NCBI GenBank assembly: GCA_965228735.1
Contig: OZ245838.1
Span: 1,152,001-1,216,000, forward strand
Length of the DNA: 64,000 nucleotides
Direction: 5' to 3'
Source of the DNA: Planctomycetota bacterium
GTDB lineage: Bacteria > Planctomycetota > UBA1135 > UBA2386
Each line of letters opens with the position of its first letter. Position 1 is the stretch's first letter. The notes beneath the pieces are model-generated. The model was not told the origin of the DNA and made no database searches. It saw only the letters and a program-made list of their open reading frames with translations. The position numbers were made by a program, and so were the translations under genes. Shown one piece after another: positions 33,870 to 52,298 of the stretch.

Positions 33870-36800
33870 GTGGTGACGAACTCGAAAACGACCCCTCCGA
33901 ATGGCGCCCGCAAGCCCGGGAAACGGGCTGCCCGAGCCGCCGCAAACGGTGGCGTCAACACGGATTCGGTAGTCGTTCGCGGCGCCCGCGAGCACAACCT
34001 GAAGGGGGTCGACGTCGCGTTCCCGCGCGACAGCCTGACGACCTTCACGGGCGTCTCGGGCTCCGGCAAGTCGAGCCTCGCCTACCACACGATCTACCAG
34101 GAGGGGCAGCGGCGCTTCCTCGAGAGCCTGAGTTCGTACGCGCGGCAGTTCCTCGGGCGCATGGAGAAGCCCAAGGTCGATCTCGTCGAGGGCCTGTCGC
34201 CGACGGTCTCGATCGACCAGAAGTCGACAAGCCACTCGCCGCGCTCGACCGTCGGCACGCTGACCGAGATCGGCGACTTCCTGCGCCTGCTCTACTCGCG
34301 CCTCGGCGATCCGAGCTGCCCCGAGTGCGGGGCGGCGATCGAGGCCTGGTCGCCCGAGCAGGTGACCAACGCGATCGTCGAACAGCACGACGGCCACAAG
34401 GTCATGGTGCTCGCTCCGGTCGTGCGCGAGCGCAAGGGCGAGTACCGCAAGGAGCTCGCGGAGTGGGCGGCCAAGGGGTTCGTGCGCGCGCGCATCGACG
34501 GCGAGGTCCGGCGCCTCGACGAGGACATCCAGCTCGAGCGCTACGTCTACCACACGATCGAACTCGTCATCGATCGCCTGACCGTCGAGGCCGACAAGCG
34601 ATCGCGACTCGCCGAGGCCGTCGAACAGGCCGTGCAGCTCGGCGAGGGGATGGTGGGGCTGACGTTCGCGGACGGCGGCGGCGAACCCGAGTTCCGGCTG
34701 TTCTCGACGCTGCGCAGTTGTCCCAACGGTCACGGCGCGCTGCCCGAGATGGAGCCGCGCCTGTTCTCGTTCAACAGTCCGATCGGCGCGTGTCCCGAGT
34801 GCGACGGACTCGGTCACACGTTCGGCTTCGCCCCCGAGCTCATCGTCAAGGACCCGGACAGGTCGATCCGCGAGGGCGCGCTCTACGCGTTCAACGACGA
34901 CGGCAAACTGGTCTACGGCACGCTGACGCTGAAGCACATGGAGAAGGTCGCGGCCGCGTTCGGCTTCGACCTCGACAAGCCGTGGAAGAAGCTCGGCAAA
35001 CGTGCCCAGAGAGTCGTGCTCTACGGCTCGGGCAGCAAGAAGTTCGAGTTCAAGTGGCGGCGCAGCTCGTCGATGATGTCGACGTCCGGTAGCGACCGCA
35101 TCGCGTTCCCGGGGATCATCCGGCACTTCGAACGGGTGTATCGCCCGTCGCGCGCGCGCAACCTCGACCGCTTCCGGGCCGCGACGCCGTGCGGCGAGTG
35201 CGAGGGCACCAGGCTCACGGCCGCGGCCAACGCCGTGACGTTCGACGGCCGGACGCTGCCCGACGTGCTGGCGCAGTCGATCGATGACGCTGCCGCCTGG
35301 ATCCAGGGCCTCGAACTCACGGGCTCGGCGGCCGTGATCGGCGAGCCGATCGTGAAGGAGATCGATCGGCGCCTCACGTTCTTACGCGACGTCGGCCTCG
35401 GGTATCTGACCCTCGCGCGCCGCGCGCCGACGCTGTCGGGCGGCGAGGCGCAGCGCATCCGGCTCGCGGCCCAGGTCGGCGCCGGCCTGCGCGGCATCCT
35501 CTACGTGCTCGACGAGCCGAGCATCGGCCTGCACGCCCGCGACCAGGAGCGGCTGCTCCGGACCCTCGAAGCGCTGCGCAACCGCGGCAACACGGTCGTC
35601 GTCGTGGAGCACGACGAGGAGACGATGCGACGCAGCGATTTCCTCGTCGACGTCGGTCCCGAGGCGGGCGTCGACGGCGGGGAGGTCGTGGTGGCCGGCG
35701 ATCCCGACGAGGTGGAGCGCAGCGCCCGATCGCTCACGGGGCGCTACCTGCGCGGCGAGCTCAGCGTGCCGATGCCGGAGCAGCGGCGCGCGGGCAACGC
35801 CGGCGTGCTCCAGATCCAACGCGCGCGCCACCACAACCTGCAGGGCGTCGACGCCGAGATCCCGCTCGGTCGGTTCAGCGCCATCACCGGCGTGTCGGGC
35901 TCGGGCAAATCAACGCTCGTGCACCACGTGCTCGTGCCGTGGCTCAAGCGCGAGCTCATGGGCGCGGACGCCGGGCCGTCGCACTGCAAGTCCATCGCGG
36001 GCGTCGATCAGCTCGACAAGATCGTCGAGATCGACCAGGCCCCGATCGGCCGCACCCCGCGCAGCAACCCGGCGACCTACACCGGGGTCTGGACGCACGT
36101 GCGCGACCTGTTCGCGATGCTGCCGGAGAGCAAGCTGCGGCAGTACGAGAAGGGGCGCTTCTCGTTCAACGTCACCGGCGGGCGCTGCGAGGCGTGCGGC
36201 GGGGCGGGCGTAACGACGCTCGAGATGAACTTCCTCGCGCCCGTCGAGGTCGTCTGCGAGGAGTGCGGGGGCGCGCGCTTCAACGCCGACACGCTCGCGA
36301 TCCGCTGGAAGGACAGATCCGTCCACGACATCCTCGCGATGTCGATCGACGAGGCCGTCGCGTTCTTCGGCGAACAACCGAAGATCGTTCGCGGACTGCG
36401 GGCACTGCAAGATGTCGGACTCGGCTACGTGCGCCTCGGGCAGCCGTCGACGACGTTGTCCGGCGGCGAAGCCCAACGCGTCAAGCTGGCCACGGAGCTG
36501 CAGCGACCGGCGACCGGCAGGACGTTCTACGTGCTCGACGAGCCGACGACGGGGCTGCACTTCCACGACGTCGCGAAGCTCCTCGACGCGCTGCAGCGGC
36601 TCGTCGATGCGGGCAACACCGTGCTCGTCATCGAGCACAACCTCGACGTCGTGCGGGCCGCGGACTGGCTCATCGAGCTCGGGCCCGAGGGCGGCACGGG
36701 CGGCGGGCGGGTCGTCGCGACCGGCACCCCGGAGGATCTGGCCGACGGCGACGAGTCGCACACCGGCACGGCCCTGCGTGCGATCGGGCTCGGCAGCAAG

Positions 36801-39800
36801 CGAAAGAAGCGCTGCGCCAAAGCCAGCCAGAACGGCAAGAACGGGAGCGGCAAGAGCGCCGTCGGGCGCGCGCGCAAGCTGACATCGATCGCGGTGCGCG
36901 GCGCCACGACGCACAACCTCGCGGGCGTCGACTGCGACGTCCCGCTCGGCGAGTTCACGGTCGTGACCGGCCCGTCGGGCTCGGGCAAGTCGAGCCTCGC
37001 GTTCGACACGATCTTCCAGGAGGGACAGCGGCGCTTCCTTGAGAGCATGTCGACGTATGCGCGCCGCTTCCTCGGACGCCTCGACCGCGCACCCGTGGAG
37101 ACGATCGAAGGGCTCGGCCCGGCGATCGCGATCGATCAGAAGCGCACGGCGCGCAGCCCGCGATCGACCGTCGCGACGACGACGGAGATCCACGACTACC
37201 TGCGCCTGCTCTACGCGCGCATCGGCCGCCACCACTGTCCGGAGCACGGCGGCGAGCTGATCGCGTGGTCGCCGACGAAGGCCGCGAAGAAGGTCGCCAC
37301 GGATCACGCCGGCCGGCGGGCGCATCTCATGGCGCCGATCGCGGTGCCCTCCGATCTCCGGGACGACGGGGCACGCGCCGGGCCGTGGCTGGAGGCGCTG
37401 TGGCTGGAGTGGCGTCAGCAGGGCTACGTCCGGGCGTTCCTCGACGGCGACGAGGTCCGCATCGACGCGACCCGTCCGAGTGCGGTGCCGGACGAGTTGC
37501 TGCTCGTGATCGACCGCGTCGCGATCGCCAGCGCCGACGACAAGGGCGGCCTCACGCGGCTCAGCGACTCGATCGAACAGGCTCAGGTCGCCGCCGCGGC
37601 GCACGGTGGGGCGCCCGCCGCGATCGTCCAGTTCGCCGACGACCGCGAACGCCTGTGGTTCCGCACCGCGGCGGCGTGTGCCGAGTGCGGCTTCGAGGCG
37701 CCCAAGGACCCGCATCCGCGCTGGTTCTCGTTCAACCATCACAGCGGTGCGTGCCCGACGTGTCTCGGCCTCGGCGAGGTCGTCCTCTGCTCCGAGGCCA
37801 TGCTCGTCAATCACCCGGACAAGCCGACGTTCGGGGGCGCGATCAAGCACCGCGGCGCGGCCTTCACGTTCCTCACGAACCCCGAGGGGTGGTATGCGGC
37901 CGTCGCGCTCGAAGTCGCGGAGAAGCACGGCTTCGATCTCGACACGCCGTGGCAGGACCTGCCGCGGGCCGCCCGCGACCTGCTGCTGCGCGGCACCGGC
38001 AAGGAGCGCCACGAGGTCGTGTTCACGAAGCGCGACGCCAGACGCAAGCGCGAGTGGCGCATGTCGGTCGCGTGGAAGGGGCTCGCCCGCCAGGTCGAGG
38101 AGTGGTTCCACGGCAAGGGCTCCGACGAGGGGCAGAGCGGCGGCGACGAGCGCTACCGCGACGTGATGCGCAGCCAGCCGTGCCCGGATTGCGCCGGCGA
38201 ACGCCTCATGCCGGGACCTCGACACGTCAAGGTTTCGGGCGTGCGGCTGCCCGAGCTCCTCGCGGCGACGGTCGACGCCGCCGCGGAGCGGATCGAACGC
38301 TTCCGGCTGAACAAGACCGAGGCCCGCATCGCGGCCGATGTGCTCAAGGAACTCGAGCACCGGTTGTCGTTCCTGCGCGAGACCGGGCTCGGCTATCTGA
38401 CGCTCGATCGTTCGGCCGCGACGTTGTCGGGCGGGGAGGCCCAGCGCATTCGACTCGCCACGCAGCTCGGCAACAAGCTCGTCGGGGTGCTCTACGTGCT
38501 CGACGAACCGACCGTCGGCCTGCATCCGCGCGACACCGAGCGGCTGCTCGCGACGTTGCTCGAGCTGCGGGATCTCGGCAACACGGTCGTCGCGGTCGAG
38601 CACGACGAGACGATGGTGCGCGCCGCGGATCACGTCCTCGACCTCGGGCCGGGCGCGGGTCACCGCGGCGGCCGCATCATCGCGCACGGCACGCCGGCCA
38701 AGGTCGCGCGCAGCAAGGGGCTCACGGGCCAGTGGCTGCGCGGCGAACTCGTGCTGCCGGCACCGACCGAACGCCGCACCCCGCGCGGTCACGCCAGCCT
38801 GCGCGACGTGCGCATCCACAACCTGAAGGGCGTCGACGTCGACGTACCGCTCGGTTGTTTCACCGCGATCACGGGGGTCTCGGGGTCGGGCAAGTCGACG
38901 CTGATCATGGACGCGCTCGTGCCCGCGTTGCGGGACCAGCAACCGATCGTCGAAGTCGACGGCGAGGAGCAACCGCGCTACCAGCTCGTCGTCGTCGACC
39001 AGAGTCCGATCGGCAGTTCGCCCGCGAGCAATCCCGCGACCTACACGGGTGTGTTCACCGCGATCCGCGAGCTGTTCAGCAAGACCAATCTCGCGCGCCA
39101 GAAGGGCTTCACCCCGGGGCGGTTCTCGTTCCACGTCGCCGCGGGCCGCTGTCAGCACTGCGAGGGCAAGGGCCAGATCCAGGTCGAGATGCACTTCCTC
39201 GCCGACGTCTGGGTCGAGTGCGAGATCTGCCGCGGCAAACGCTACAACGCCGAGACGCTGAGCGTCGACTACCGCGGCAAGAACATCGCCGACGTGCTCC
39301 GCATGGAGGTCGACGAGGCCCTCGCGTTCTTCGGCAACCATCCGAAGATCAAGCGCCCGCTGCAGCTGCTGCACGACGTCGGCCTGGGCTACCTGCAGCT
39401 GGGTCAGCCGGCCAACACGTTCTCGGGCGGCGAGGCGCAACGCATCAAGCTCGTCACCGAGCTCGCGACGAGGCCACGAGCGCACATGATCTACGTGCTC
39501 GACGAGCCGACGACCGGGCTGCATCTCGACGATGTGAAGAAGCTCACGGGCGTGCTCGAACGGCTGCTCGACCGCGGCGACTCCGTGCTCGTCATCGAGC
39601 ATCACCTCGATCTCATTCTCGCCGCCGACCAGGTGCTCGAGCTCGGGCCCGAGGCGGGGGCGGATGGCGGCGAGGTCGTGGCGCAGGGCACGCCCGAGGA
39701 GGTCGCCGGCGTGGCGTCGAGTCACACCGGGCGGTTCCTCGCCGAACGGCTCGGGTTCGGTTCTGCGAAGAACGAGGCGGCGCCGCGACGGCCGGCGAAG

Positions 39801-39935
39801 CCCAAGAAGAACGCCAGGAAGGCCAAGAAGGCGACCAGAAAGACCGCGACGACCCGCAAGGCGAAGAAGGCCACGGCGCCGGCGGCGCGGCGGCGATCGC
39901 CGCGCGGCAAGAGCTCGGCAGGAGGCAACGCGTGA
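33870..39935 (+). CDS. uvrA: Double-length (tandem-fused) excinuclease ABC subunit A
   Basis: Two complete UvrA units: four Walker A motifs (GVSGSGKSS, GVSGSGKST, GPSGSGKSS, GVSGSGKST), four SGGEAQR signatures, four LDEP Walker B motifs, Zn-finger CxxC pairs, FSFN motifs; second unit starts at ~36879. Confidence 0.97.
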   Translation: MVTNSKTTPPNGARKPGKRAARAAANGGVNTDSVVVRGAREHNLKGVDVAFPRDSLTTFTGVSGSGKSSLAYHTIYQEGQRRFLESLSSYARQFLGRMEKPKVDLVEGLSPTVSIDQKSTSHSPRSTVGTLTEIGDFLRLLYSRLGDPSCPECGAAIEAWSPEQVTNAIVEQHDGHKVMVLAPVVRERKGEYRKELAEWAAKGFVRARIDGEVRRLDEDIQLERYVYHTIELVIDRLTVEADKRSRLAEAVEQAVQLGEGMVGLTFADGGGEPEFRLFSTLRSCPNGHGALPEMEPRLFSFNSPIGACPECDGLGHTFGFAPELIVKDPDRSIREGALYAFNDDGKLVYGTLTLKHMEKVAAAFGFDLDKPWKKLGKRAQRVVLYGSGSKKFEFKWRRSSSMMSTSGSDRIAFPGIIRHFERVYRPSRARNLDRFRAATPCGECEGTRLTAAANAVTFDGRTLPDVLAQSIDDAAAWIQGLELTGSAAVIGEPIVKEIDRRLTFLRDVGLGYLTLARRAPTLSGGEAQRIRLAAQVGAGLRGILYVLDEPSIGLHARDQERLLRTLEALRNRGNTVVVVEHDEETMRRSDFLVDVGPEAGVDGGEVVVAGDPDEVERSARSLTGRYLRGELSVPMPEQRRAGNAGVLQIQRARHHNLQGVDAEIPLGRFSAITGVSGSGKSTLVHHVLVPWLKRELMGADAGPSHCKSIAGVDQLDKIVEIDQAPIGRTPRSNPATYTGVWTHVRDLFAMLPESKLRQYEKGRFSFNVTGGRCEACGGAGVTTLEMNFLAPVEVVCEECGGARFNADTLAIRWKDRSVHDILAMSIDEAVAFFGEQPKIVRGLRALQDVGLGYVRLGQPSTTLSGGEAQRVKLATELQRPATGRTFYVLDEPTTGLHFHDVAKLLDALQRLVDAGNTVLVIEHNLDVVRAADWLIELGPEGGTGGGRVVATGTPEDLADGDESHTGTALRAIGLGSKRKKRCAKASQNGKNGSGKSAVGRARKLTSIAVRGATTHNLAGVDCDVPLGEFTVVTGPSGSGKSSLAFDTIFQEGQRRFLESMSTYARRFLGRLDRAPVETIEGLGPAIAIDQKRTARSPRSTVATTTEIHDYLRLLYARIGRHHCPEHGGELIAWSPTKAAKKVATDHAGRRAHLMAPIAVPSDLRDDGARAGPWLEALWLEWRQQGYVRAFLDGDEVRIDATRPSAVPDELLLVIDRVAIASADDKGGLTRLSDSIEQAQVAAAAHGGAPAAIVQFADDRERLWFRTAAACAECGFEAPKDPHPRWFSFNHHSGACPTCLGLGEVVLCSEAMLVNHPDKPTFGGAIKHRGAAFTFLTNPEGWYAAVALEVAEKHGFDLDTPWQDLPRAARDLLLRGTGKERHEVVFTKRDARRKREWRMSVAWKGLARQVEEWFHGKGSDEGQSGGDERYRDVMRSQPCPDCAGERLMPGPRHVKVSGVRLPELLAATVDAAAERIERFRLNKTEARIAADVLKELEHRLSFLRETGLGYLTLDRSAATLSGGEAQRIRLATQLGNKLVGVLYVLDEPTVGLHPRDTERLLATLLELRDLGNTVVAVEHDETMVRAADHVLDLGPGAGHRGGRIIAHGTPAKVARSKGLTGQWLRGELVLPAPTERRTPRGHASLRDVRIHNLKGVDVDVPLGCFTAITGVSGSGKSTLIMDALVPALRDQQPIVEVDGEEQPRYQLVVVDQSPIGSSPASNPATYTGVFTAIRELFSKTNLARQKGFTPGRFSFHVAAGRCQHCEGKGQIQVEMHFLADVWVECEICRGKRYNAETLSVDYRGKNIADVLRMEVDEALAFFGNHPKIKRPLQLLHDVGLGYLQLGQPANTFSGGEAQRIKLVTELATRPRAHMIYVLDEPTTGLHLDDVKKLTGVLERLLDRGDSVLVIEHHLDLILAADQVLELGPEAGADGGEVVAQGTPEEVAGVASSHTGRFLAERLGFGSAKNEAAPRRPAKPKKNARKAKKATRKTATTRKAKKATAPAARRRSPRGKSSAGGNA

Positions 39936-41635
39936 CCGAACCGCCGCTGATCGTTCAAACGGACTGCACGGTGCTGCTCGAGACCTGGCACGACGACTAC
40001 GAGGCCGCGCGTGACCGGCTCGGCCGCTTCGCCGAGCTCGAGAAGTCGCCCGAGTACGTGCACTTCTACCGGCTCACCCCGGTGAGCATCTGGAACGCCG
40101 CGGCGCTCGGGGAGACCGCGGAGGACACGCTCACCTGGCTCGAGGCGAACGCGCGCTACCCGGTCGCGCCCGCGGTGCGGAAGCGCCTCGAGGACTGGTT
40201 CCGCCGCTACGGCCTGCTGCGACTGACGCCGGGCCCGGCCGGCCGCCTCGTGCTCGAGTGCGAAGACGACGAGGTGCTCGATGAGCTGCTCGAGGACGAA
40301 CGCGTCGCCGAGCTCGTGGAGTGGGACGATGACGAGCGCGCCACGATCGCGGCCGCAGCCCGCGGCGAACTCAAGCAGGCGCTAGTGCGGGCGGGGTATC
40401 CCGTCGACGATCGCGCGGGTTACGCGGCCGGCAACGAGCTCGCGTTCGGGTGGCGTGACCGCACGACCTCCGGCTCGGCGTTCGCGCTGCGTGACTATCA
40501 GACCGAGGCCGCGGCCGCGTTCCACGCCGGCGGATCGGATCGCGGCGGCTGCGGTGTCGTCGTGCTGCCGTGCGGTGCCGGCAAGACCGTCGTCGGGATC
40601 GCGGCGATGCAGTTGCTGCAGAACAACACGCTCATCCTCACGACGAACACCGTCGCGGTGCGCCAGTGGTGCCAGGAACTCCTCGACAAGACCGACCTGC
40701 GGCCCGAGGACGTCGGCGAGTACACCGGTGACCGCAAGGAGATCCGACCGGTCACGGTCGCGACCTACCAGATGCTCACGCACAGGAAGGGGAAGACCGA
40801 CGAGTTCACGCACCTGGGCCTGTTCGACAGCGGCGGCTTCGGCCTCGTGATCTACGACGAGGTCCACCTGCTGCCGGCGCCCGTGTTCCGCGCGACGGCC
40901 GGGATCCAGGCCAGGCGCCGGCTCGGGCTCACCGCGACGCTCGTGCGCGAGGACGGGCGCGCGGACGAGGTGTTCTCGCTCATCGGACCGAAACGGTTCG
41001 AGGTGCCGTGGCGACAGCTCGAGGACGGCGGCTTCCTCGCGACCGCGCACTGCGCCGAGGTCCGGGTGCCGTTGAGCGCGGAACGCGAGGCCCGCTACGA
41101 GGCCGCGACCGCGCGCTCCCAGATCCGCATCGCGGCCGACAACGAGCAGAAGATCGACGTGACGGGCGCGCTTCTCGAGTTGCACCGCGACGACCGCGTG
41201 CTCGTGATCGGCCAGTACATCGAACAGCTCCGGCAGCTGGCCCAGGTTTTCGGCATTCCGCTGATCACCGGCCAGACGCCCAATGCGGAGCGGGAGCGCC
41301 TCTACGAGAGGTTCCGCGTCGGCGAGCTGCCGCGGCTCATGGTGAGCAAGGTCGGCAACTTCGCGATCGACCTGCCCGATGCCAACGTCGCGATCCAGGT
41401 ATCCGGGACGTTCGGCAGCCGGCAGGAAGAGGCGCAGCGCCTCGGGCGGGTGCTGCGCCCCAAGGCCGATGGCCGCGCCGCGCACTTCTACACCCTGGTA
41501 TCGGCCGCGACCCGCGAGCAGGAGTTCGCCCAGAAGCGGCAGCTGTTCCTGACCGAGCAGGGCTACGGCTACGCGATCCTCGAAGCCGATGAACTGTCAG
41601 AACGCGCCCGCAAGCTGCGGGAGGAGCGTGCATGA
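39932..41635 (+). CDS. xpb: XPB/Ssl2/Rad25-family DNA repair helicase
   Basis: GTG start overlapping the uvrA stop; PLIVQTD...FAELEKSPEYVHFYRLTPVSIWNA N-domain; LRDYQ, LPCGAGKT, DEVH, RLGLTATLVRED, SRQEEAQRLGRVLR. Confidence 0.94.
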   Translation: MTEPPLIVQTDCTVLLETWHDDYEAARDRLGRFAELEKSPEYVHFYRLTPVSIWNAAALGETAEDTLTWLEANARYPVAPAVRKRLEDWFRRYGLLRLTPGPAGRLVLECEDDEVLDELLEDERVAELVEWDDDERATIAAAARGELKQALVRAGYPVDDRAGYAAGNELAFGWRDRTTSGSAFALRDYQTEAAAAFHAGGSDRGGCGVVVLPCGAGKTVVGIAAMQLLQNNTLILTTNTVAVRQWCQELLDKTDLRPEDVGEYTGDRKEIRPVTVATYQMLTHRKGKTDEFTHLGLFDSGGFGLVIYDEVHLLPAPVFRATAGIQARRRLGLTATLVREDGRADEVFSLIGPKRFEVPWRQLEDGGFLATAHCAEVRVPLSAEREARYEAATARSQIRIAADNEQKIDVTGALLELHRDDRVLVIGQYIEQLRQLAQVFGIPLITGQTPNAERERLYERFRVGELPRLMVSKVGNFAIDLPDANVAIQVSGTFGSRQEEAQRLGRVLRPKADGRAAHFYTLVSAATREQEFAQKRQLFLTEQGYGYAILEADELSERARKLREERA

Positions 41636-43548
41636 GTCGTTTGAGTCTGAGAGCGTTGCTGCAGCGCGCGGACCAGGAGTCGGTCCGTGACTGCGTTGCG
41701 CATTGGGTCGAGAAGAACCCGCCTGCGCAGCGCCGGATCGCGATCCAGCGGGCCGCGGCGGCGATGGAGGACGAAGCCCTCGTCTTGCGCCGGATGGGCG
41801 CGCTGCCGCGCAAACTGCAGGACCTGCTCGAGGTGTTCTTCGGCGAGAACGGCGCCGTCCGGTGCGTGAAGGAGCTCTACGCCGAGCTCGGCGAGTCGTT
41901 CAAGAGCCGCTTCGATCTCGAGGCCACGCTCGCGGCGCTGCATCGCGAGGGCTTCCTCTGGCAGGCGACGGACAAGCGCTGGGCCGAGGAGGACAGCCCC
42001 GCGTGGGGTGTGCCCGGCGAGCTCGTCGAGTGCGTCCAGCAGTATCGGCGTCGCAGCGAGCGGCAGCTGCAGGACTCGATCACGCTGCAGGGCTATCTCG
42101 ACGCGCGCTACTTCCGCGATCGCGAACAGGCCGGCGACGGCGACCAGAACGGCGCGACCAACGCAAATGGCAGCGACGATGGCAGCCGGAAGAACGGTCG
42201 TGCTGCGAAGAACGGGTGCTCGGCCAAGGACAAGGCCGCGGATCACGCGCGCAAGATCTACAAGCTCTACACGATGGATAGCTCGATGCGGCAGCGACTC
42301 GAGAAGCTGCCGGATACGCTGCGGACGGTCGTCGACGAGGTGCTCGGTCGGCACGGGGGCATCTGCGCCTGGGACGAGCTCGCCGAGGAGATCGAACTCT
42401 CCGAAGGCGCCGACGCCGACTTCGTGAAGAAGGGGCTCGAGGAAGCCATGATCGGCACGGTCGGCACCCTCGACCTGACCCGGCTCGGGATCCAGGCCGT
42501 CGACCGCGGGGTCATCGTGTTCCACGAGGTCGCGCTCTTCGCGATCCGCGCGCGCGGCGAAGCCAGCATGCCCCAGGTCACCGAGGAGCTGGTCTGCGGC
42601 GGCGACTTCGCCACGAACGTCGCCCGCTTCCTCCGGGAGCTGCAGCAGAGCAAGGTGATGTTCACGGCCGATGGCAAGCTGTTCAAAGCCTCGCAGAAGC
42701 GCATCGCGAACACCCTGCTGCCCGTGCCCGGCGAGTTCCTGCCGCCGGAGTCGCTGCTCGAGCAGCTCTACCGCTTCTGCCTGCAGCGGCGATTGATCGA
42801 CCGCCGGGGCGAACGTTCGCTGCGCCCGACGCCGGCCGGGCAGGAGTTCGACCGCAGCGCGCTCAACGACCAGACGAAGATGCTGCTCGCGCACTTCGTC
42901 GAGGACCGCGCGCTGCCCGGCGAAGGCTATCACCAGGTCCGCATGCGGCGGGTTCTGTTGCGTCTGCTCCGCCGGGCCGAGCCGATGCTCTGGCAGGACG
43001 CCTCCGTGCTGCCGTTTCTCGCCCGCAACGCCTACCTCGCGCAGCTCGACGGCAAACAGACGGAGGAGTTCTTCGCGACGCGCTTCCAGGGTGGTGGCTA
43101 CGCCCCGAGCGAGACCCTCCAGCAGATGTGCTGGAACCTGCTCGTCTGGGTCAAGAAACGGCTGTTCCCGCTCGGCATCGTCGACCTCGGCCTGCACTCG
43201 GGTCGCCTCGTGGCGATGCGGCTGTCGCAGCTCGGCGCCGAACTGCTCGATGCGGAGCCGGCCGGCAAGGTCGGCGGCACGCGCAGCAGCCTGATCGTAC
43301 AGCCGGACTTCGACGTGCTGTTGTTCAGCGGCGACGACGTCCACGACGCGGTGCACGTGCTCGACCGCTTCGCGCGGCGCATCAAGAGCGACCACGTGCA
43401 TCAGTTCCGACTCGAGCAGCAGAGCGTCGAAGCCGGCCTCGCGGAGGGCCTCACGATCGCCGAGATCGTGCAGGAGCTGACCGACCGCGCCCGCGTGCCG
43501 ATCCCGCAGAACGTGCGCTACAGCCTGGAGGAGTGGGGTCAGCAGTGA
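41632..43548 (+). CDS. Helicase-associated (Helicase_C_3 / XPB N-terminal-like clutch domain) protein, p52/Tfb2-like
   Basis: ATGA overlap with xpb; C-terminal LIVQPDFDVLL...LDRFA...FRLEQQSV..GL..G...PIPQNVRYSLEEW aligns by eye with the XPB N-domain. Confidence 0.85.
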   Translation: MSRLSLRALLQRADQESVRDCVAHWVEKNPPAQRRIAIQRAAAAMEDEALVLRRMGALPRKLQDLLEVFFGENGAVRCVKELYAELGESFKSRFDLEATLAALHREGFLWQATDKRWAEEDSPAWGVPGELVECVQQYRRRSERQLQDSITLQGYLDARYFRDREQAGDGDQNGATNANGSDDGSRKNGRAAKNGCSAKDKAADHARKIYKLYTMDSSMRQRLEKLPDTLRTVVDEVLGRHGGICAWDELAEEIELSEGADADFVKKGLEEAMIGTVGTLDLTRLGIQAVDRGVIVFHEVALFAIRARGEASMPQVTEELVCGGDFATNVARFLRELQQSKVMFTADGKLFKASQKRIANTLLPVPGEFLPPESLLEQLYRFCLQRRLIDRRGERSLRPTPAGQEFDRSALNDQTKMLLAHFVEDRALPGEGYHQVRMRRVLLRLLRRAEPMLWQDASVLPFLARNAYLAQLDGKQTEEFFATRFQGGGYAPSETLQQMCWNLLVWVKKRLFPLGIVDLGLHSGRLVAMRLSQLGAELLDAEPAGKVGGTRSSLIVQPDFDVLLFSGDDVHDAVHVLDRFARRIKSDHVHQFRLEQQSVEAGLAEGLTIAEIVQELTDRARVPIPQNVRYSLEEWGQQ

Positions 43549-43674
43549 CCGGATCCCGGAGCCGGGACCGCTGCATCGCATCTTCACACGGCCGATGACA
43601 GCGGCGCTTGCAAAGCAGCCGGCATGCCGTTCAGGTTCTGCGCCGATACTCGACCTCGCCTCCTCGCCTGATTG

Positions 43675-45120
43675 ATGGAACCCGAAACACTCATCCTCGG
43701 CGCCGGACCCGCCGGTCTCGCCTGCGCCATGGAGCTGTCGCGCAAGGGCAAGCCGAGCGTCGTCATCGAGAAGGACGCGCAGATCGGCGGCCTCGCGAAG
43801 ACGCTGCGGATCCCGGTGGGTGACCAGGAGTTCCTGACCGACATCGGGCCGCACCGGTTCTTCTCGAAGAACCAGTACCTCTACGACTTCATCGAGGACC
43901 TGCTCGACGAGGAATGGCGGCTCGTGCCGCGGCAGACGCGGCAGTTCATCGACGGAAAGTTCTACGACTACCCGGTGAAGGCGATGCAGACGTTCAAGAA
44001 CCTGGGGCCGCTGCGCAGCGCCAGGATCCTGTTCGACTACTTCGCGGCCCGCATCACCTACGGCGTCTTGGGCAAGAAGCTCGAGACGTTCGAGGACTAC
44101 GTCGTGTCGAACTTCGGCCGCTCGCTGGCCGAGTTCAGCATGATCAACTACTCGGAGAAGATCTGGGGCATCCCGGCCGCCGAGATCCACCCGGACTGGG
44201 CGCGGCAGCGCATCAGCGGCCTCAACCTCTGGAGCGTGTTCAAGAAGGCGATCGGCCTCGGCGGCGGCAAAGGGCCGAAGTCGCTCGTCGATCAGTTCTA
44301 CTACCCGCAGTTCGGCACGGGCCGCATCTACGAGGAGATCGGCAAGCACCTCGTCCAGGAAGGCGGCGAGATCCACACGGCCAGCGAGCCGGTCAAGGTG
44401 CGCCACGAAGGCGGGCGGATCACCGAGGTCGACGTCAGGGCGCCCGACGGCAGCGTGCACACGTATCGCCCGGACAACCTCGTCGAGTCCGTGCCGTTGA
44501 CGCGCTTCCTGCACCTGCTCGATCCGCTGCCGCCGACCGAGGTGCTCGAGGCCGCCGCCGGCCTGCGCTGGCGCGCGCAGGTCTACCTGTTCCTCACGCT
44601 GAACAAGGAATCGATCACGCCGGACAACTGGATCTACTTCCCCAACAAGGACATCCCGTTCGGCCGCACGAGCGAGATGAAGAACTTCAGCAAGGACATG
44701 TGCCCCGCGGGCAAGACGTCCTTCTTCGTCGAGTTCTTCGCGTTCGAGGAAGAGGCGATCTACTCGATGACCAAGGAAGAGGTCTTCGAGCTGTCGATGC
44801 CGTACTTCGAGAAGTGGGGCTTCTTCTCCCGCGACGAGGTGGAGAGCATCCACCTGATCAAGCGGCCGAACGTCTACCCGGTCTACGACCTCGAGTACGA
44901 TACGCGCCTCGCAAAGGTGCGCGACTGGCTCGACGCGATCGAGAACCTGATCTACATCGGCCGCCCCGGTCGCTTCCGCTACACCAACCAGGACCACAGC
45001 CTCGAGATGGGCATCCTCGCGAGCCGCATGATCCTCGAAGGGCGCAAGTACGACCTCGACACGATCGGGGCCGAGAACGAGTACTTCGAGAAGGGGCCGA
45101 TCTACGAGAAGCGCATCTGA
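43675..45120 (+). CDS. FAD-dependent oxidoreductase (protoporphyrinogen oxidase/UDP-galactopyranose mutase-like superfamily)
   Basis: ILGAGPAGL, GGLAKT, DIGPHRFFSK, FYYPQFGTG, WIYFP, YPVY, IGRPGRFRYTNQDHS. Confidence 0.88.
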   Translation: MEPETLILGAGPAGLACAMELSRKGKPSVVIEKDAQIGGLAKTLRIPVGDQEFLTDIGPHRFFSKNQYLYDFIEDLLDEEWRLVPRQTRQFIDGKFYDYPVKAMQTFKNLGPLRSARILFDYFAARITYGVLGKKLETFEDYVVSNFGRSLAEFSMINYSEKIWGIPAAEIHPDWARQRISGLNLWSVFKKAIGLGGGKGPKSLVDQFYYPQFGTGRIYEEIGKHLVQEGGEIHTASEPVKVRHEGGRITEVDVRAPDGSVHTYRPDNLVESVPLTRFLHLLDPLPPTEVLEAAAGLRWRAQVYLFLTLNKESITPDNWIYFPNKDIPFGRTSEMKNFSKDMCPAGKTSFFVEFFAFEEEAIYSMTKEEVFELSMPYFEKWGFFSRDEVESIHLIKRPNVYPVYDLEYDTRLAKVRDWLDAIENLIYIGRPGRFRYTNQDHSLEMGILASRMILEGRKYDLDTIGAENEYFEKGPIYEKRI

Positions 45121-45809
45121 TGCCGGCGCCGCGCGACAGCTCCGGTCGCCTCGATCCGGCACTCCTCGAGGTCGTCATGATCAGCGACGGCCGCGGCGAC
45201 CTGCCGCGCCTCGAACGCACCGCGGCGGCAGTGATCGAGGCCGGCGTTCGCTGCGTGCAGATCCGCGAGTCGCGCTGGACCGCGCGCATGCTCGTCCAGG
45301 CCTGCGAGAGGCTGCGCCCGTTGCTCGACGCCGTGGCTGGCGTGCTGCTCGTCAACGACCGGGTCGACGTGGCCGCGGCCGGCGTCGCACACGGCGTGCA
45401 CCTCGGCCATCGTTCGTTGCCGATCGACATGGCGCGCCAGGTCCTCGGCCCCGATGCGGTCATCGGTTACTCGGCGCACGACACCGCGGAGCTCGAGCTG
45501 GCGGCCGTCGCACGCGCCGACTTCGCAACGCTGTCGCCGGTGTGGCCCACGAGCAGCAAGCCCAACGCACCGACGGTCGGGGAGAGCCGCGCCATCGCGC
45601 TCACCGGCAACGCGCGGCTGCCCGTCGTCTGGCTCGGCGGCATCACGACGCGCGAAGCCGCGTCGATCGCGCGCTACACCGATGGCCCGCAGCCGGCCGG
45701 GGTGGCGGTGCGTTCCTTGTTCGGCGACGCCGAGGACCCGGGGTTCACCGCCACCCGGCTGCTCTCGGCGCTGCGCGGTGACGGCGCCGTGGACGGCGCG
45801 ACGGACTGA
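45120..45809 (+). CDS. thiE: Thiamine phosphate synthase (ThiE/TenI family)
   Basis: VQIRE, LVNDRVDVA, GVHLG, GYSAH, SPVWPTSSKP, LGGI. Confidence 0.85.
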   Translation: MPAPRDSSGRLDPALLEVVMISDGRGDLPRLERTAAAVIEAGVRCVQIRESRWTARMLVQACERLRPLLDAVAGVLLVNDRVDVAAAGVAHGVHLGHRSLPIDMARQVLGPDAVIGYSAHDTAELELAAVARADFATLSPVWPTSSKPNAPTVGESRAIALTGNARLPVVWLGGITTREAASIARYTDGPQPAGVAVRSLFGDAEDPGFTATRLLSALRGDGAVDGATD

Positions 45810-49817: not shown

Positions 49818-50519
49818 GTGAAGCACCCGGCCCGCACACCACCTGCAGACTCGCCGACGGTCGATGTCGACCTGTTGGCGGCGTATCGCGCGGGCGACTC
49901 GCAGGCATTCCGCCGGCTCGTCGACCAGTTCCGCGACCGCATCGTGCAGTTCTTCTACCGCCTGTGCTGGGACCGCGACAAAGCGGAGGACCTGGCGCAG
50001 GAGCTGTTCCTCAAGCTGCTGATCGGCAGCAAGCGGTATCGCCCCGAGGGCAAGATGGTGACGTTCGTCTACCGCGTCGCCACCAACCTCTGGATCGATC
50101 ACTACCGGCAGATGCGCCCGCGGCCGCGCTTCCACTCGCTCGACCAGGTGACGTACCCGGACGGCGAGACGCGCAAGGTCGAATACGCGAACGACGACAA
50201 GGCGCCGGCCGAGCAACTGCAGGACGGGGAAGAACGGGCGGCGCTGCGCACGGCCCTCGAGTCGTTGACCGAGCCGCACCGACTGGTGTTCGAACTCGCG
50301 GTGTATCAAGAACGGCCGTACGCGGAGATCAGCGAATTGCTGAGCATCCCCGTCGGCACGGTCAAATCGCGGATGCACAACGCCGTCGCGGCGCTCAAGC
50401 AGATGCTCGGCGCCAGCGACAGTTCGGCGGGTGCGGACGGCCACGATACTGGCGCTCGGGAAGCTGGCCCATGGCAAGCTGGCGGTGGGGCGAGCGACCG
50501 CAAGGCGGGCGGCGCCTGA
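49818..50519 (+). CDS. ECF RNA polymerase sigma factor
   Basis: AEDLAQELFL, YRVATNLWIDHYR, YAEISELLSIPVGTVKSRMH. Confidence 0.93.
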   Translation: MKHPARTPPADSPTVDVDLLAAYRAGDSQAFRRLVDQFRDRIVQFFYRLCWDRDKAEDLAQELFLKLLIGSKRYRPEGKMVTFVYRVATNLWIDHYRQMRPRPRFHSLDQVTYPDGETRKVEYANDDKAPAEQLQDGEERAALRTALESLTEPHRLVFELAVYQERPYAEISELLSIPVGTVKSRMHNAVAALKQMLGASDSSAGADGHDTGAREAGPWQAGGGASDRKAGGA

Positions 50520-50546
50520 CGGCGTCACGATCCTGAAGCCACGATC

Positions 50547-52298
50547 ATGAATCCGGACAGCGACACGAACGACTTCGACGGCCTCGACGCGCGGCGCGGT
50601 CTCGCCCCTCGGGACGAGAACGGCGCGGGCTCGGACCTCGAGCCGATCGACCTGCTGTTGCGTGCGGGCAGCCCGGAGGAGCTGCAGGGCTTCCGCGATC
50701 GCGTCGGCCAGGATCCGCTGCTCGCGCTCGAGCTCGCGGACACGGTCGCGCTCGTCGAGCGGCTGCGGACGGTGCGCGTCGAACCGGATGCCGCGTTCGC
50801 GGGCAAACTCGCGGATGTCGTGCAGCGCGCCGAACGGCGCATGACGCCGGAGAACCAAGCCGGGCCGTGGCTCGCCGCGGCGGCGCTGATGATCGTCACG
50901 TTCGGCCTGCTCGCGTGGCTCGACCCGCTCGACCTGCGGCGCGACGACGCGGTGACCGGCGGGATGGCGGCGCTGCTCGCGAACGCCCCCCTCGGTAATA
51001 CTCCACTAGGCGGCGCAGCCGCAGCCGTGCAGGCCGGGGTCGCCGGGGCGACGGATGACGATCGGACGCCGACGGACGAGACCACGACTGGGTCGCAGAA
51101 CCGCGCCGACGCCGCGGCCTCGCCGGCTCGACGTGACGGCTCTGGGCGTCACAGAGCTGGGTTCGATTCGGAGCGCTCGCGGGCCGAGCGACCTGTACCG
51201 GAGCTGCCGGCGGTGGCATTCGACGAGGTGCCGACCGCCGACGAGATCGAGCACGAGGATGCGCTGCGCGTGATCCGCGAACGGTTCGAGATCGAATCGG
51301 CCGAGCACATGACCGCGGCGCTCGATCGCGCCCTGGCGGCAGCCGAGCCGTCCTCGGCCGACCAGCTCTCACGCTGGCTCGATCCGCAGAATGCGCTCGC
51401 CCGGCTCGCGCTCGATCACGAACTGCGCGAGAGTGTGGAAGTGCGGCGCGCGGCGCTGCGCAGCCTCGGCGCGATGATCGCGGCCGACAAGCGCGCGCAA
51501 GACCTGGCGGACGGCGTCGCGTCGGAGCTGCGCGCCGATGACGGCTCGCTGTCGACGACGACGGTCGCCCTCGGCGTGCGCGCGATCGTGGCCGCGGGGG
51601 CTTCGTCCCCGAACCGCCGCGCCGCGCTCGAACGGGGCACCGCGCGACTCGCGCGCGACGTGTCGCAGCTGATCGGCGGGGAGCGGGCGGCGGTGCTCGC
51701 GGCGCTCGTCGAATCGGCCGCGGTCGAACGCGTCCACGCGGGCGGCATCCGCGCGACCGGCGAAGCACTCGTCGACGAAGTGCTCAAGCTCGACGACGAG
51801 ACCTGGCGCCGCCGGCGGCCGGAACTGCTGTCCGCCCGCGTCGCGGCCGCGACGATCGGCGAAGCGGGCCGCACGCTGGCGCTGTTGCCCGCGTTCGGCG
51901 TGACCGGGGAACGCTGCACGCTCGTGCGGCGACTGCTCCTCGGCGAGTTGTGGGAACGGCGCAGCCGCACGGCCGGTGAGCGCCCCGAGGTCCTCGCCGC
52001 GATGCTCTACGGCTTCGCCGACCTGCTCGGGGACCGCGACTGCAACGAGCTCGTGCGGCAGCTGCGCCGCTGGAAGCCGGCGCATCTCGCGCCGGACTTC
52101 ATCACGGTGCAGCAGACGGCGTGGGGCGTCGAGCCCGGCCGCCTCGGCTTCACGGCGCTGCAGCGTGACCTGCGTCAGCTCGTGATCCTGCCCGAGCCGG
52201 TGGACCTGGCGCAGCGCGCGACACTCTGCATGTGCCTCGCGACGAACTACGCCGCGCACCGCGCCGAGTCACTGGCGCGGTTCACCGGCGGCCGCTGA
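50547..52298 (+). CDS. Putative membrane anti-sigma factor with large helical extracytoplasmic domain
   Basis: Directly downstream of the ECF sigma; short acidic N-terminal domain, single TM (WLAAAALMIVTFGLLAWL), low-complexity linker, helical C-terminus. Confidence 0.65.
   Translation: MNPDSDTNDFDGLDARRGLAPRDENGAGSDLEPIDLLLRAGSPEELQGFRDRVGQDPLLALELADTVALVERLRTVRVEPDAAFAGKLADVVQRAERRMTPENQAGPWLAAAALMIVTFGLLAWLDPLDLRRDDAVTGGMAALLANAPLGNTPLGGAAAAVQAGVAGATDDDRTPTDETTTGSQNRADAAASPARRDGSGRHRAGFDSERSRAERPVPELPAVAFDEVPTADEIEHEDALRVIRERFEIESAEHMTAALDRALAAAEPSSADQLSRWLDPQNALARLALDHELRESVEVRRAALRSLGAMIAADKRAQDLADGVASELRADDGSLSTTTVALGVRAIVAAGASSPNRRAALERGTARLARDVSQLIGGERAAVLAALVESAAVERVHAGGIRATGEALVDEVLKLDDETWRRRRPELLSARVAAATIGEAGRTLALLPAFGVTGERCTLVRRLLLGELWERRSRTAGERPEVLAAMLYGFADLLGDRDCNELVRQLRRWKPAHLAPDFITVQQTAWGVEPGRLGFTALQRDLRQLVILPEPVDLAQRATLCMCLATNYAAHRAESLARFTGGR

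Follow-up and report, generated by a model that had tools for sequence, protein, structure and literature searches.

Does a bacterial UvrA work together with an XPB-type motor, or do the two genes only share a neighbourhood? This question is raised by a three-gene array on the forward strand of a 64,000-nucleotide stretch of DNA (the window) from a Planctomycetota bacterium (assembly GCA_965228735.1, contig OZ245838.1, positions 1,152,001 to 1,216,000), whose genome is a single contig of 7.19 Mb. The first gene (33870..39935) encodes a tandem, or single-chain dimer, class I UvrA of 2021 amino acids (aa), recognised by Pfam/TIGR matches and motif sets. It is followed by an XPB superfamily 2 translocase of 567 aa with a eukaryote-type N-terminal domain (39932..41635) and by a p52/Tfb2-like partner of 638 aa, in which winged-helix repeats precede a C-terminal clutch domain at residues 547-638 (41632..43548). 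Reading-frame coordinates and junction letters bear out an earlier note on this DNA, which had described an array with two 4-nt stop/start overlaps: GTGA at 39932 joins uvrA to xpb, and ATGA at 41632 joins xpb to the partner gene. A promoter/terminator scan between the three genes gave no sigma-70-like site on their own strand and no terminator, both of which are at chance level. The overlaps of the triad are by themselves ordinary for this genome, in which 636 of 2260 close co-directional gene pairs have a -4 overlap according to rough gene calls, and they lie within chance. What goes beyond chance is the retention of the uvrA-xpb junction over many families.

The reading favoured here, tentatively and at somewhat less than an even chance, is that XPB and its p52-like partner are an accessory double-stranded DNA (dsDNA) translocase for ordinary UvrABC chemistry, delivering UvrA-UvrB or opening the DNA. 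The intact single-chain UvrA dimer would still load UvrB, as residues kept in both halves suggest. XPB and the partner would bind each other via matching clutch domains, on the pattern of TFIIH, and would make up a motor on double-strand DNA that helps to bring UvrA-UvrB to lesions or opens the DNA there. The model is that of Mfd, in which a translocase takes over the delivery of UvrA. UvrA may recruit XPB, and the motor may have a role in repair; in the window's genome it would be dispensable as an accessory, whereas one sister family, called f9 below, may need it.

Retention of the uvrA-xpb junction

Matches to PF13625 were found in 34 of 41 close genomes (the window's own and 40 relatives) and in 75 of 151 genomes of a phylum-wide sample; the matches almost always come in twos, about 3.3 kb apart. 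Corynebacterium glutamicum also has a PF13625 match. The xpb regions of all 33 relatives with a match were examined together with 40 phylum-sample loci chosen for family spread and contig context; the locus sets counted below (order, other orders, second class, metagenome, outside the phylum) share a few genomes. The gene-neighbourhood survey proposed in the earlier note found the adjacency kept among relatives. uvrA adjoins xpb in 30 of the 35 loci of the window's order (27 at -4; two without the link and three undecided) and in 15 of 16 loci of a second class, where the sixteenth was too short for the script, yet both genes are visible. The link is present in 11/38 loci of other orders and in 44 of 80 metagenome loci, two of the latter being negative and 34 either undecided or lacking xpb. 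Within Planctomycetota, this junction is an old one.

The xpb and partner genes move as a pair: at two of the three xpb-less loci examined, a ThiE-like gene, which often follows the partner gene, stands directly after uvrA. The XPB tree mixes linked with unlinked loci, and its deep support is weak. At one locus (L022, genome G014), an intact uvrA is followed by a strongly diverged xpb and partner on a long branch, with a shortened N-terminal region, and the pair is apparently decaying. Two genomes of family f8 (G031, with locus L034 on C9, and G038) have a second xpb with several PF13625-containing neighbours that is not linked to uvrA.

Natural UvrA-XPB fusions were considered as evidence of a complex and rejected. 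Two single-frame candidates were found, P0005 and P0006; the latter has out-of-frame stretches inside, as does an XPB-partner "fusion", P0004. P0005 (locus L260, G212:C86) is uvrA-uvrA-xpb in one frame of 2512 aa, annotated as UvrA. The 11 codons at its junction have lower scores than any in-frame window of this gene, and the alternative frame reaches a stop 7 nt ahead of the xpb start; the fusion is thus probably a one-base indel.

XPB and its p52-like partner

The earlier note had named the second gene XPB, and correctly: it scores 813.5 bits against NF045503 (cut-off 610), carries the PF13625 N-terminal domain and has Walker A, DEVH, RED and motif VI all intact. Its nearest named relatives are from Planctomycetota. 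In family and motifs it is like other bacterial XPB proteins (NF045503), including that of M. tuberculosis (PMC3353954), from which it differs in having a p52-like gene coupled to xpb, behind uvrA. As far as the available text of that 2012 paper goes, p52 homologues were not found in bacteria, and bacterial XPB was considered probably to act outside a TFIIH-like complex (PMC3353954); the available part of a 2026 review calls the role of bacterial XPB elusive (PMC13024598). No account of a UvrA-XPB-partner triad or of a bacterial p52 was found in the open-access literature, subscription journals being outside the scope of the search.

The partner matches PF13625 only at C-terminal residues 554-636. 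Its AlphaFold model (28 sequences) has a pLDDT of 88, and in a Foldseek search with this model all 19 matches at E<=0.001 were p52/Tfb2-type chains over 257-466 columns, a name taken from the title for 6TRS and deduced from length and residue range for the rest. In VIA alignments, residues 226-638 matched p52 48-397 with Z 14.9 and an rmsd of 17 Å, residues 313-540, which lie outside the clutch, matched the p52 N-terminal crystal structure 6TRU with Z 10.7 and an rmsd of 3.2 Å over 150 residues, and the clutch (547-638) matched the XPB N-terminal domain with Z 15.9 and an rmsd of 1.6 Å. The clutch of a relative's partner matched p52 301-399 (Z 14.3, rmsd 1.6 Å). Since these alignments cover both regions, the likeness of the modelled partner to p52 spans the winged-helix part and the clutch, with different domain angles.

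The sequence link to Tfb2 is weak. PF03849, the Pfam family of Tfb2, is unmatched in the window partner and matched in 7 of 28 members of the partner family, at best with 24.3 bits (E 1.8e-5) against a cut-off of 34.5, and the partner-family profile matches yeast Tfb2 at E 0.036. The window partner stops at the clutch. It is without the C-terminal domain of about 70 aa of most distant relatives, as are 44 of 139 partner relatives by a script count in which a few are merely truncated; this domain folds like the XPB damage-recognition domain and gave no clear-cut match to the p52 tail. The partner is p52-like in architecture, as had been proposed, with two p52 features absent, namely an above-threshold PF03849 score and the C-terminal p8-binding domain.

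These likenesses are best seen next to XPB-p52 (Ssl2-Tfb2) of TFIIH (6NMI, 6TRS/6TRU, 8EBU), in which the clutch folds of XPB and p52 form a pseudo-symmetric dimer, according to the available text of PMC6422496. Both systems have an XPB with a clutch-fold N-terminal domain and, as far as the model goes, a partner whose winged-helix repeats lead into a clutch of that fold, so that the domain order agrees as well; by analogy, XPB and the partner likely pair through their matching clutch domains. The window partner differs from p52 in its length of 638 aa, an extra N-terminal winged helix, the end of the chain at the clutch and the sub-cut-off Tfb2 score. As for the TFIIH core, PF06777 of the XPD family is unmatched in the genome, but the controls were unmatched too, and p8, p34, p44 and p62 were not searched. 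The earlier label of a TFIIH-like system goes too far, since the XPB-p52 sub-module is the only part seen.

Partner-like genes vary elsewhere. In two loci of family f2 (L027, L037), whose linked UvrA is without second-half ATPase motifs, the partner is without the first ~140 residues, i.e., the N-terminal winged helix. Three archaeal records (L120, L137, L162), one of them titled Thorarchaeota, have a bacterial-type XPB with a partner-like gene nearby, which bears on the origin of p52.

The tandem UvrA and its stripped relatives

The window UvrA is the single-chain dimer that the earlier note had described: two full class I copies, each matching TIGR00630/PRK00349 (TIGR00630 scores of 1267 and 1046 bits against a cut-off of 729.8), with four complete sets of Walker A, signature, Walker B and H motifs. 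The UvrB-binding domain (PF17760) and the insertion domain (PF17755) occur in two stretches each, all on the plus strand. In the first half, the UvrB-binding domain (residues 161-264; 34350..34661) is canonical and matches solved UvrA domains at E 1e-22 to 6e-16, and the DNA-binding insertion domain lies at 34833..35150. The UvrB-binding domain of the second half (37221..37724) is so diverged that no solved UvrA was matched at E<=1; the insertion domain of this half lies at 37842..38144. The UvrB interaction surface of E. coli UvrA involves R216 and E222 (available text of PMC3025350). By alignment to solved UvrA domains, the equivalents in the window protein would be R246/E252 in the first half and R1230/E1236 in the second. 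4DFC is taken here to be of E. coli origin. Among linked UvrAs, the contact arginine is kept in 70/72 first domains and 70/70 second domains, and the glutamate in 48 and 55, respectively. Because the arginine is retained, both halves of the window UvrA probably still bind UvrB. The idea that the second domain had switched to XPB is weakened by the same documented residue.

Two fused uvrA copies are described as general in Planctomycetes in the available text of PMC8567305. The tandem UvrA of that account is like the one in the window in its two fused copies, its four ATPase sites and the presence of uvrB, uvrC and mfd. Here, however, uvrA overlaps xpb, relatives carry linked forms without insertion domains and ATPase sites, and the word "XPB" is absent from that paper in the form available. 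The window has neither uvrB nor uvrC, as noted earlier, and the single copies of both genes are found about 0.9 Mb away; mfd is also encoded elsewhere. A second tandem UvrA of the genome (C1:5260662-5265650) is of class II, both of its halves being without a UvrB-binding domain, and the window UvrA is therefore the only candidate UvrB loader of the genome. The search for uvrB, uvrC and a canonical uvrA suggested by the earlier note thus returned the first two, whereas the sole UvrA with UvrB-binding domains is that of the window. A tandem UvrA resembling the class II protein is present in G013 (L048), and two further tandem UvrAs that are not linked to xpb (L047 and L049, in G028 and G036) have a canonical-looking UvrB-binding domain in the second half and a diverged one in the first.

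In sister families, the linked UvrA has been remodelled, and one of these families, f9, supplies the most telling new clue. In f8 the first insertion domain is gone, in f5 both are, and in f2 the second-half ATPase motifs are missing as well as both domains; in f9, the protein is about 1335 aa long, with losses beyond those of f2, no insertion domains and dead second-half ATPase motifs. These stripped proteins retain both UvrB-binding folds, and the suggestion that they had lost UvrB binding for want of an RKG motif is weakened, as the contact arginine is kept. A standard UvrA is encoded elsewhere in f5 and f2 genomes and was found in only 2 of 49 f9 genomes (69-92% complete; only 14 candidates scored per genome). 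The f9 genomes have the stripped UvrA in 44/49 (L042:791-4798; L277-L306), which in most of the 49 is the only UvrA-like gene found, together with uvrB in 49/49 and uvrC in 48/49; mfd is present in both f9 genomes searched. xpb directly follows the stripped uvrA at 30/30 f9 loci (the best 30 of 44) and at 3/3 f2 loci. Stripped UvrAs are under purifying selection: dN/dS is 0.19 in an f5 pair (0.21 for the C-half) and 0.35 in an f9-like pair (C-half 0.37), another f9-like pair being saturated.

What could deliver such a UvrA? The available part of PMC3025350 indicates that the insertion domain and one ATPase site of UvrA matter less when a translocase, Mfd, delivers it, and that loss of the insertion domain is tolerated in the Mfd setting. 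The parts lost by linked UvrAs are of the kinds that are dispensable under Mfd delivery, so the stripped UvrA looks motor-delivered; by this analogy, the delivering motor could be the XPB-partner pair, its constant neighbour, or Mfd. With Mfd-UvrA transcription-coupled repair (PMC3025350, available text), the window system would share a superfamily 2 translocase that spares UvrA the search for damage. Unlike Mfd, which binds UvrA by a UvrB-like module, neither XPB nor the partner of the window showed such a module in a Pfam scan, and Mfd is also present.

The earlier note had also considered that UvrA hands the lesion to the XPB-p52-like pair instead of UvrB, with a separate nuclease doing the cutting. 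This is now very improbable and largely refuted. The second UvrB-binding domain, too diverged to match solved UvrAs, would suit it, as would a DUF790 (Bax1-like) gene in the window's genome. This gene is an orphan at C1:445921-447228 with no helicase alongside, and DUF790 occurs in only 8 of the 41 close genomes, never at xpb coordinates; as a missing partner it was rejected, being patchy and unlinked to xpb. UvrB is retained in 39/41 of these genomes and in all 49 f9 genomes, with the beta-hairpin and domain 2 intact in the three f9 copies inspected; the window's genome has uvrC, and the contact arginine is kept in both domains, without exception in the second. The archaeal XPB-Bax1 helicase-nuclease is similar in that XPB is encoded next to a dedicated partner, whereas the partner in the window is p52-like in fold and gave no nuclease match.

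Joint action or a shared old operon

The partner gene is followed on the plus strand by a gene for a FAD-dependent oxidoreductase (43672..45120), found at this position only in one sub-group of family f1 among the loci compared and probably an insertion outside the system, and by a ThiE/TenI-like paralogue (45117..45809). Farther along, at 49818-52298, an ECF-type sigma factor precedes a large putative anti-sigma protein without a Pfam match. The ThiE-like gene serves as a control for operon inertia. Its product is below the ThiE cut-off and also matches the Nudix-ThiE fusion model PRK08999, and a better ThiE is encoded elsewhere in the genome. Of 53 loci scanned, 20 have it directly after the partner gene, which it often overlaps, in two classes. 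A gene without a known repair role has thus been kept equally long in two classes, and adjacency alone therefore cannot carry the argument.

Several observations weigh against an accessory repair motor. Where both ends of a locus could be decided, uvrA and the ThiE-like gene are present together in 80 loci, uvrA alone in 16, the ThiE-like gene alone in 3 and neither in 16 (counts not de-duplicated, with the fused G212 locus mis-scored as being without uvrA). uvrA stands beside xpb in 0/50 decidable loci outside Planctomycetota, and most XPB-bearing bacteria are without the link. In family f7, xpb-partner lies apart from a tandem uvrA that is intact, 7 of 24 f1 genomes are without a PF13625 match, two of them assemblies of 2 and 8 contigs, and one f1 genome has a decaying xpb. 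Over the whole chain, the partner fits p52 poorly in Foldseek (TM 0.13-0.19, rmsd 15-20 Å). Both UvrB-binding domains retain the UvrB-contact arginine and thus show no obvious surface set free for XPB. Mfd, encoded in 40 of the 41 close genomes, could by itself account for the stripped UvrA. Loss of the insertion domain represents one to three events on the tree, and the 30/30 of f9 are therefore not 30 independent tests.

Much of this would fit operon inertia or shared regulation only, which is a serious possibility, if a minority one: the tandem UvrA and the widespread XPB-partner pair would share an old operon with no joint action, and the stripped UvrA would serve Mfd-dependent repair or tolerate its losses. 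The nearly equal co-conservation of the ThiE-like gene, the frequency of -4 overlaps, the unlinked or missing xpb of f7 and f1, the prevalence of mfd and the generality of tandem UvrA in Planctomycetes (PMC8567305, available text) are all expected under inertia. It explains less well that the uvrA link extends to five families without a ThiE-like gene after the partner (f12, f69, f45, f18 and f63, the last undecided), and that a stripped UvrA without xpb was seen in 0/33 loci examined, whereas intact UvrA has lost xpb several times. Alternatively, the motor may act on RNA polymerase or other protein roadblocks, in promoter opening or the clearing of stalled complexes, much as TFIIH acts in transcription, and meet UvrA only through co-induction by damage. 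In eukaryotes, XPB-p52 has roles in repair and in transcription (PMC13024598, available text), and in most lineages the pair is found without uvrA. This is nevertheless unlikely, as no transcription gene was the next gene at any of the 53 loci, surveyed on the downstream side only, and the remodelling of the linked UvrA would be left unexplained.

In its strongest form, the accessory-motor reading would give nucleotide excision repair in bacteria a third entry route. Tethered to a single-chain UvrA, a bacterial counterpart of the XPB-p52 motor with two subunits would search for lesions or open the DNA on behalf of UvrB, much as XPB acts for XPD, and one whole family would depend on it, its UvrA, sensor-less and half dead, being kept only to link the motor to UvrB. 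This is doubtful at present; if it were true, p52 would have a bacterial origin or a bacterial sister already serving excision repair. The small p52-like partner is in any case an obvious candidate for the activator so far missing from assays of bacterial XPB, and it offers a pared-down model of the motor of TFIIH. Family f9 is a natural experiment, in which UvrB and UvrC persist alongside a UvrA that has no insertion domains and only half of its ATPase sites. It follows that either UvrA can do without those parts or the search falls to another motor. The stripped UvrA of f9 merits study for itself, and either outcome bears on how UvrA finds damage.

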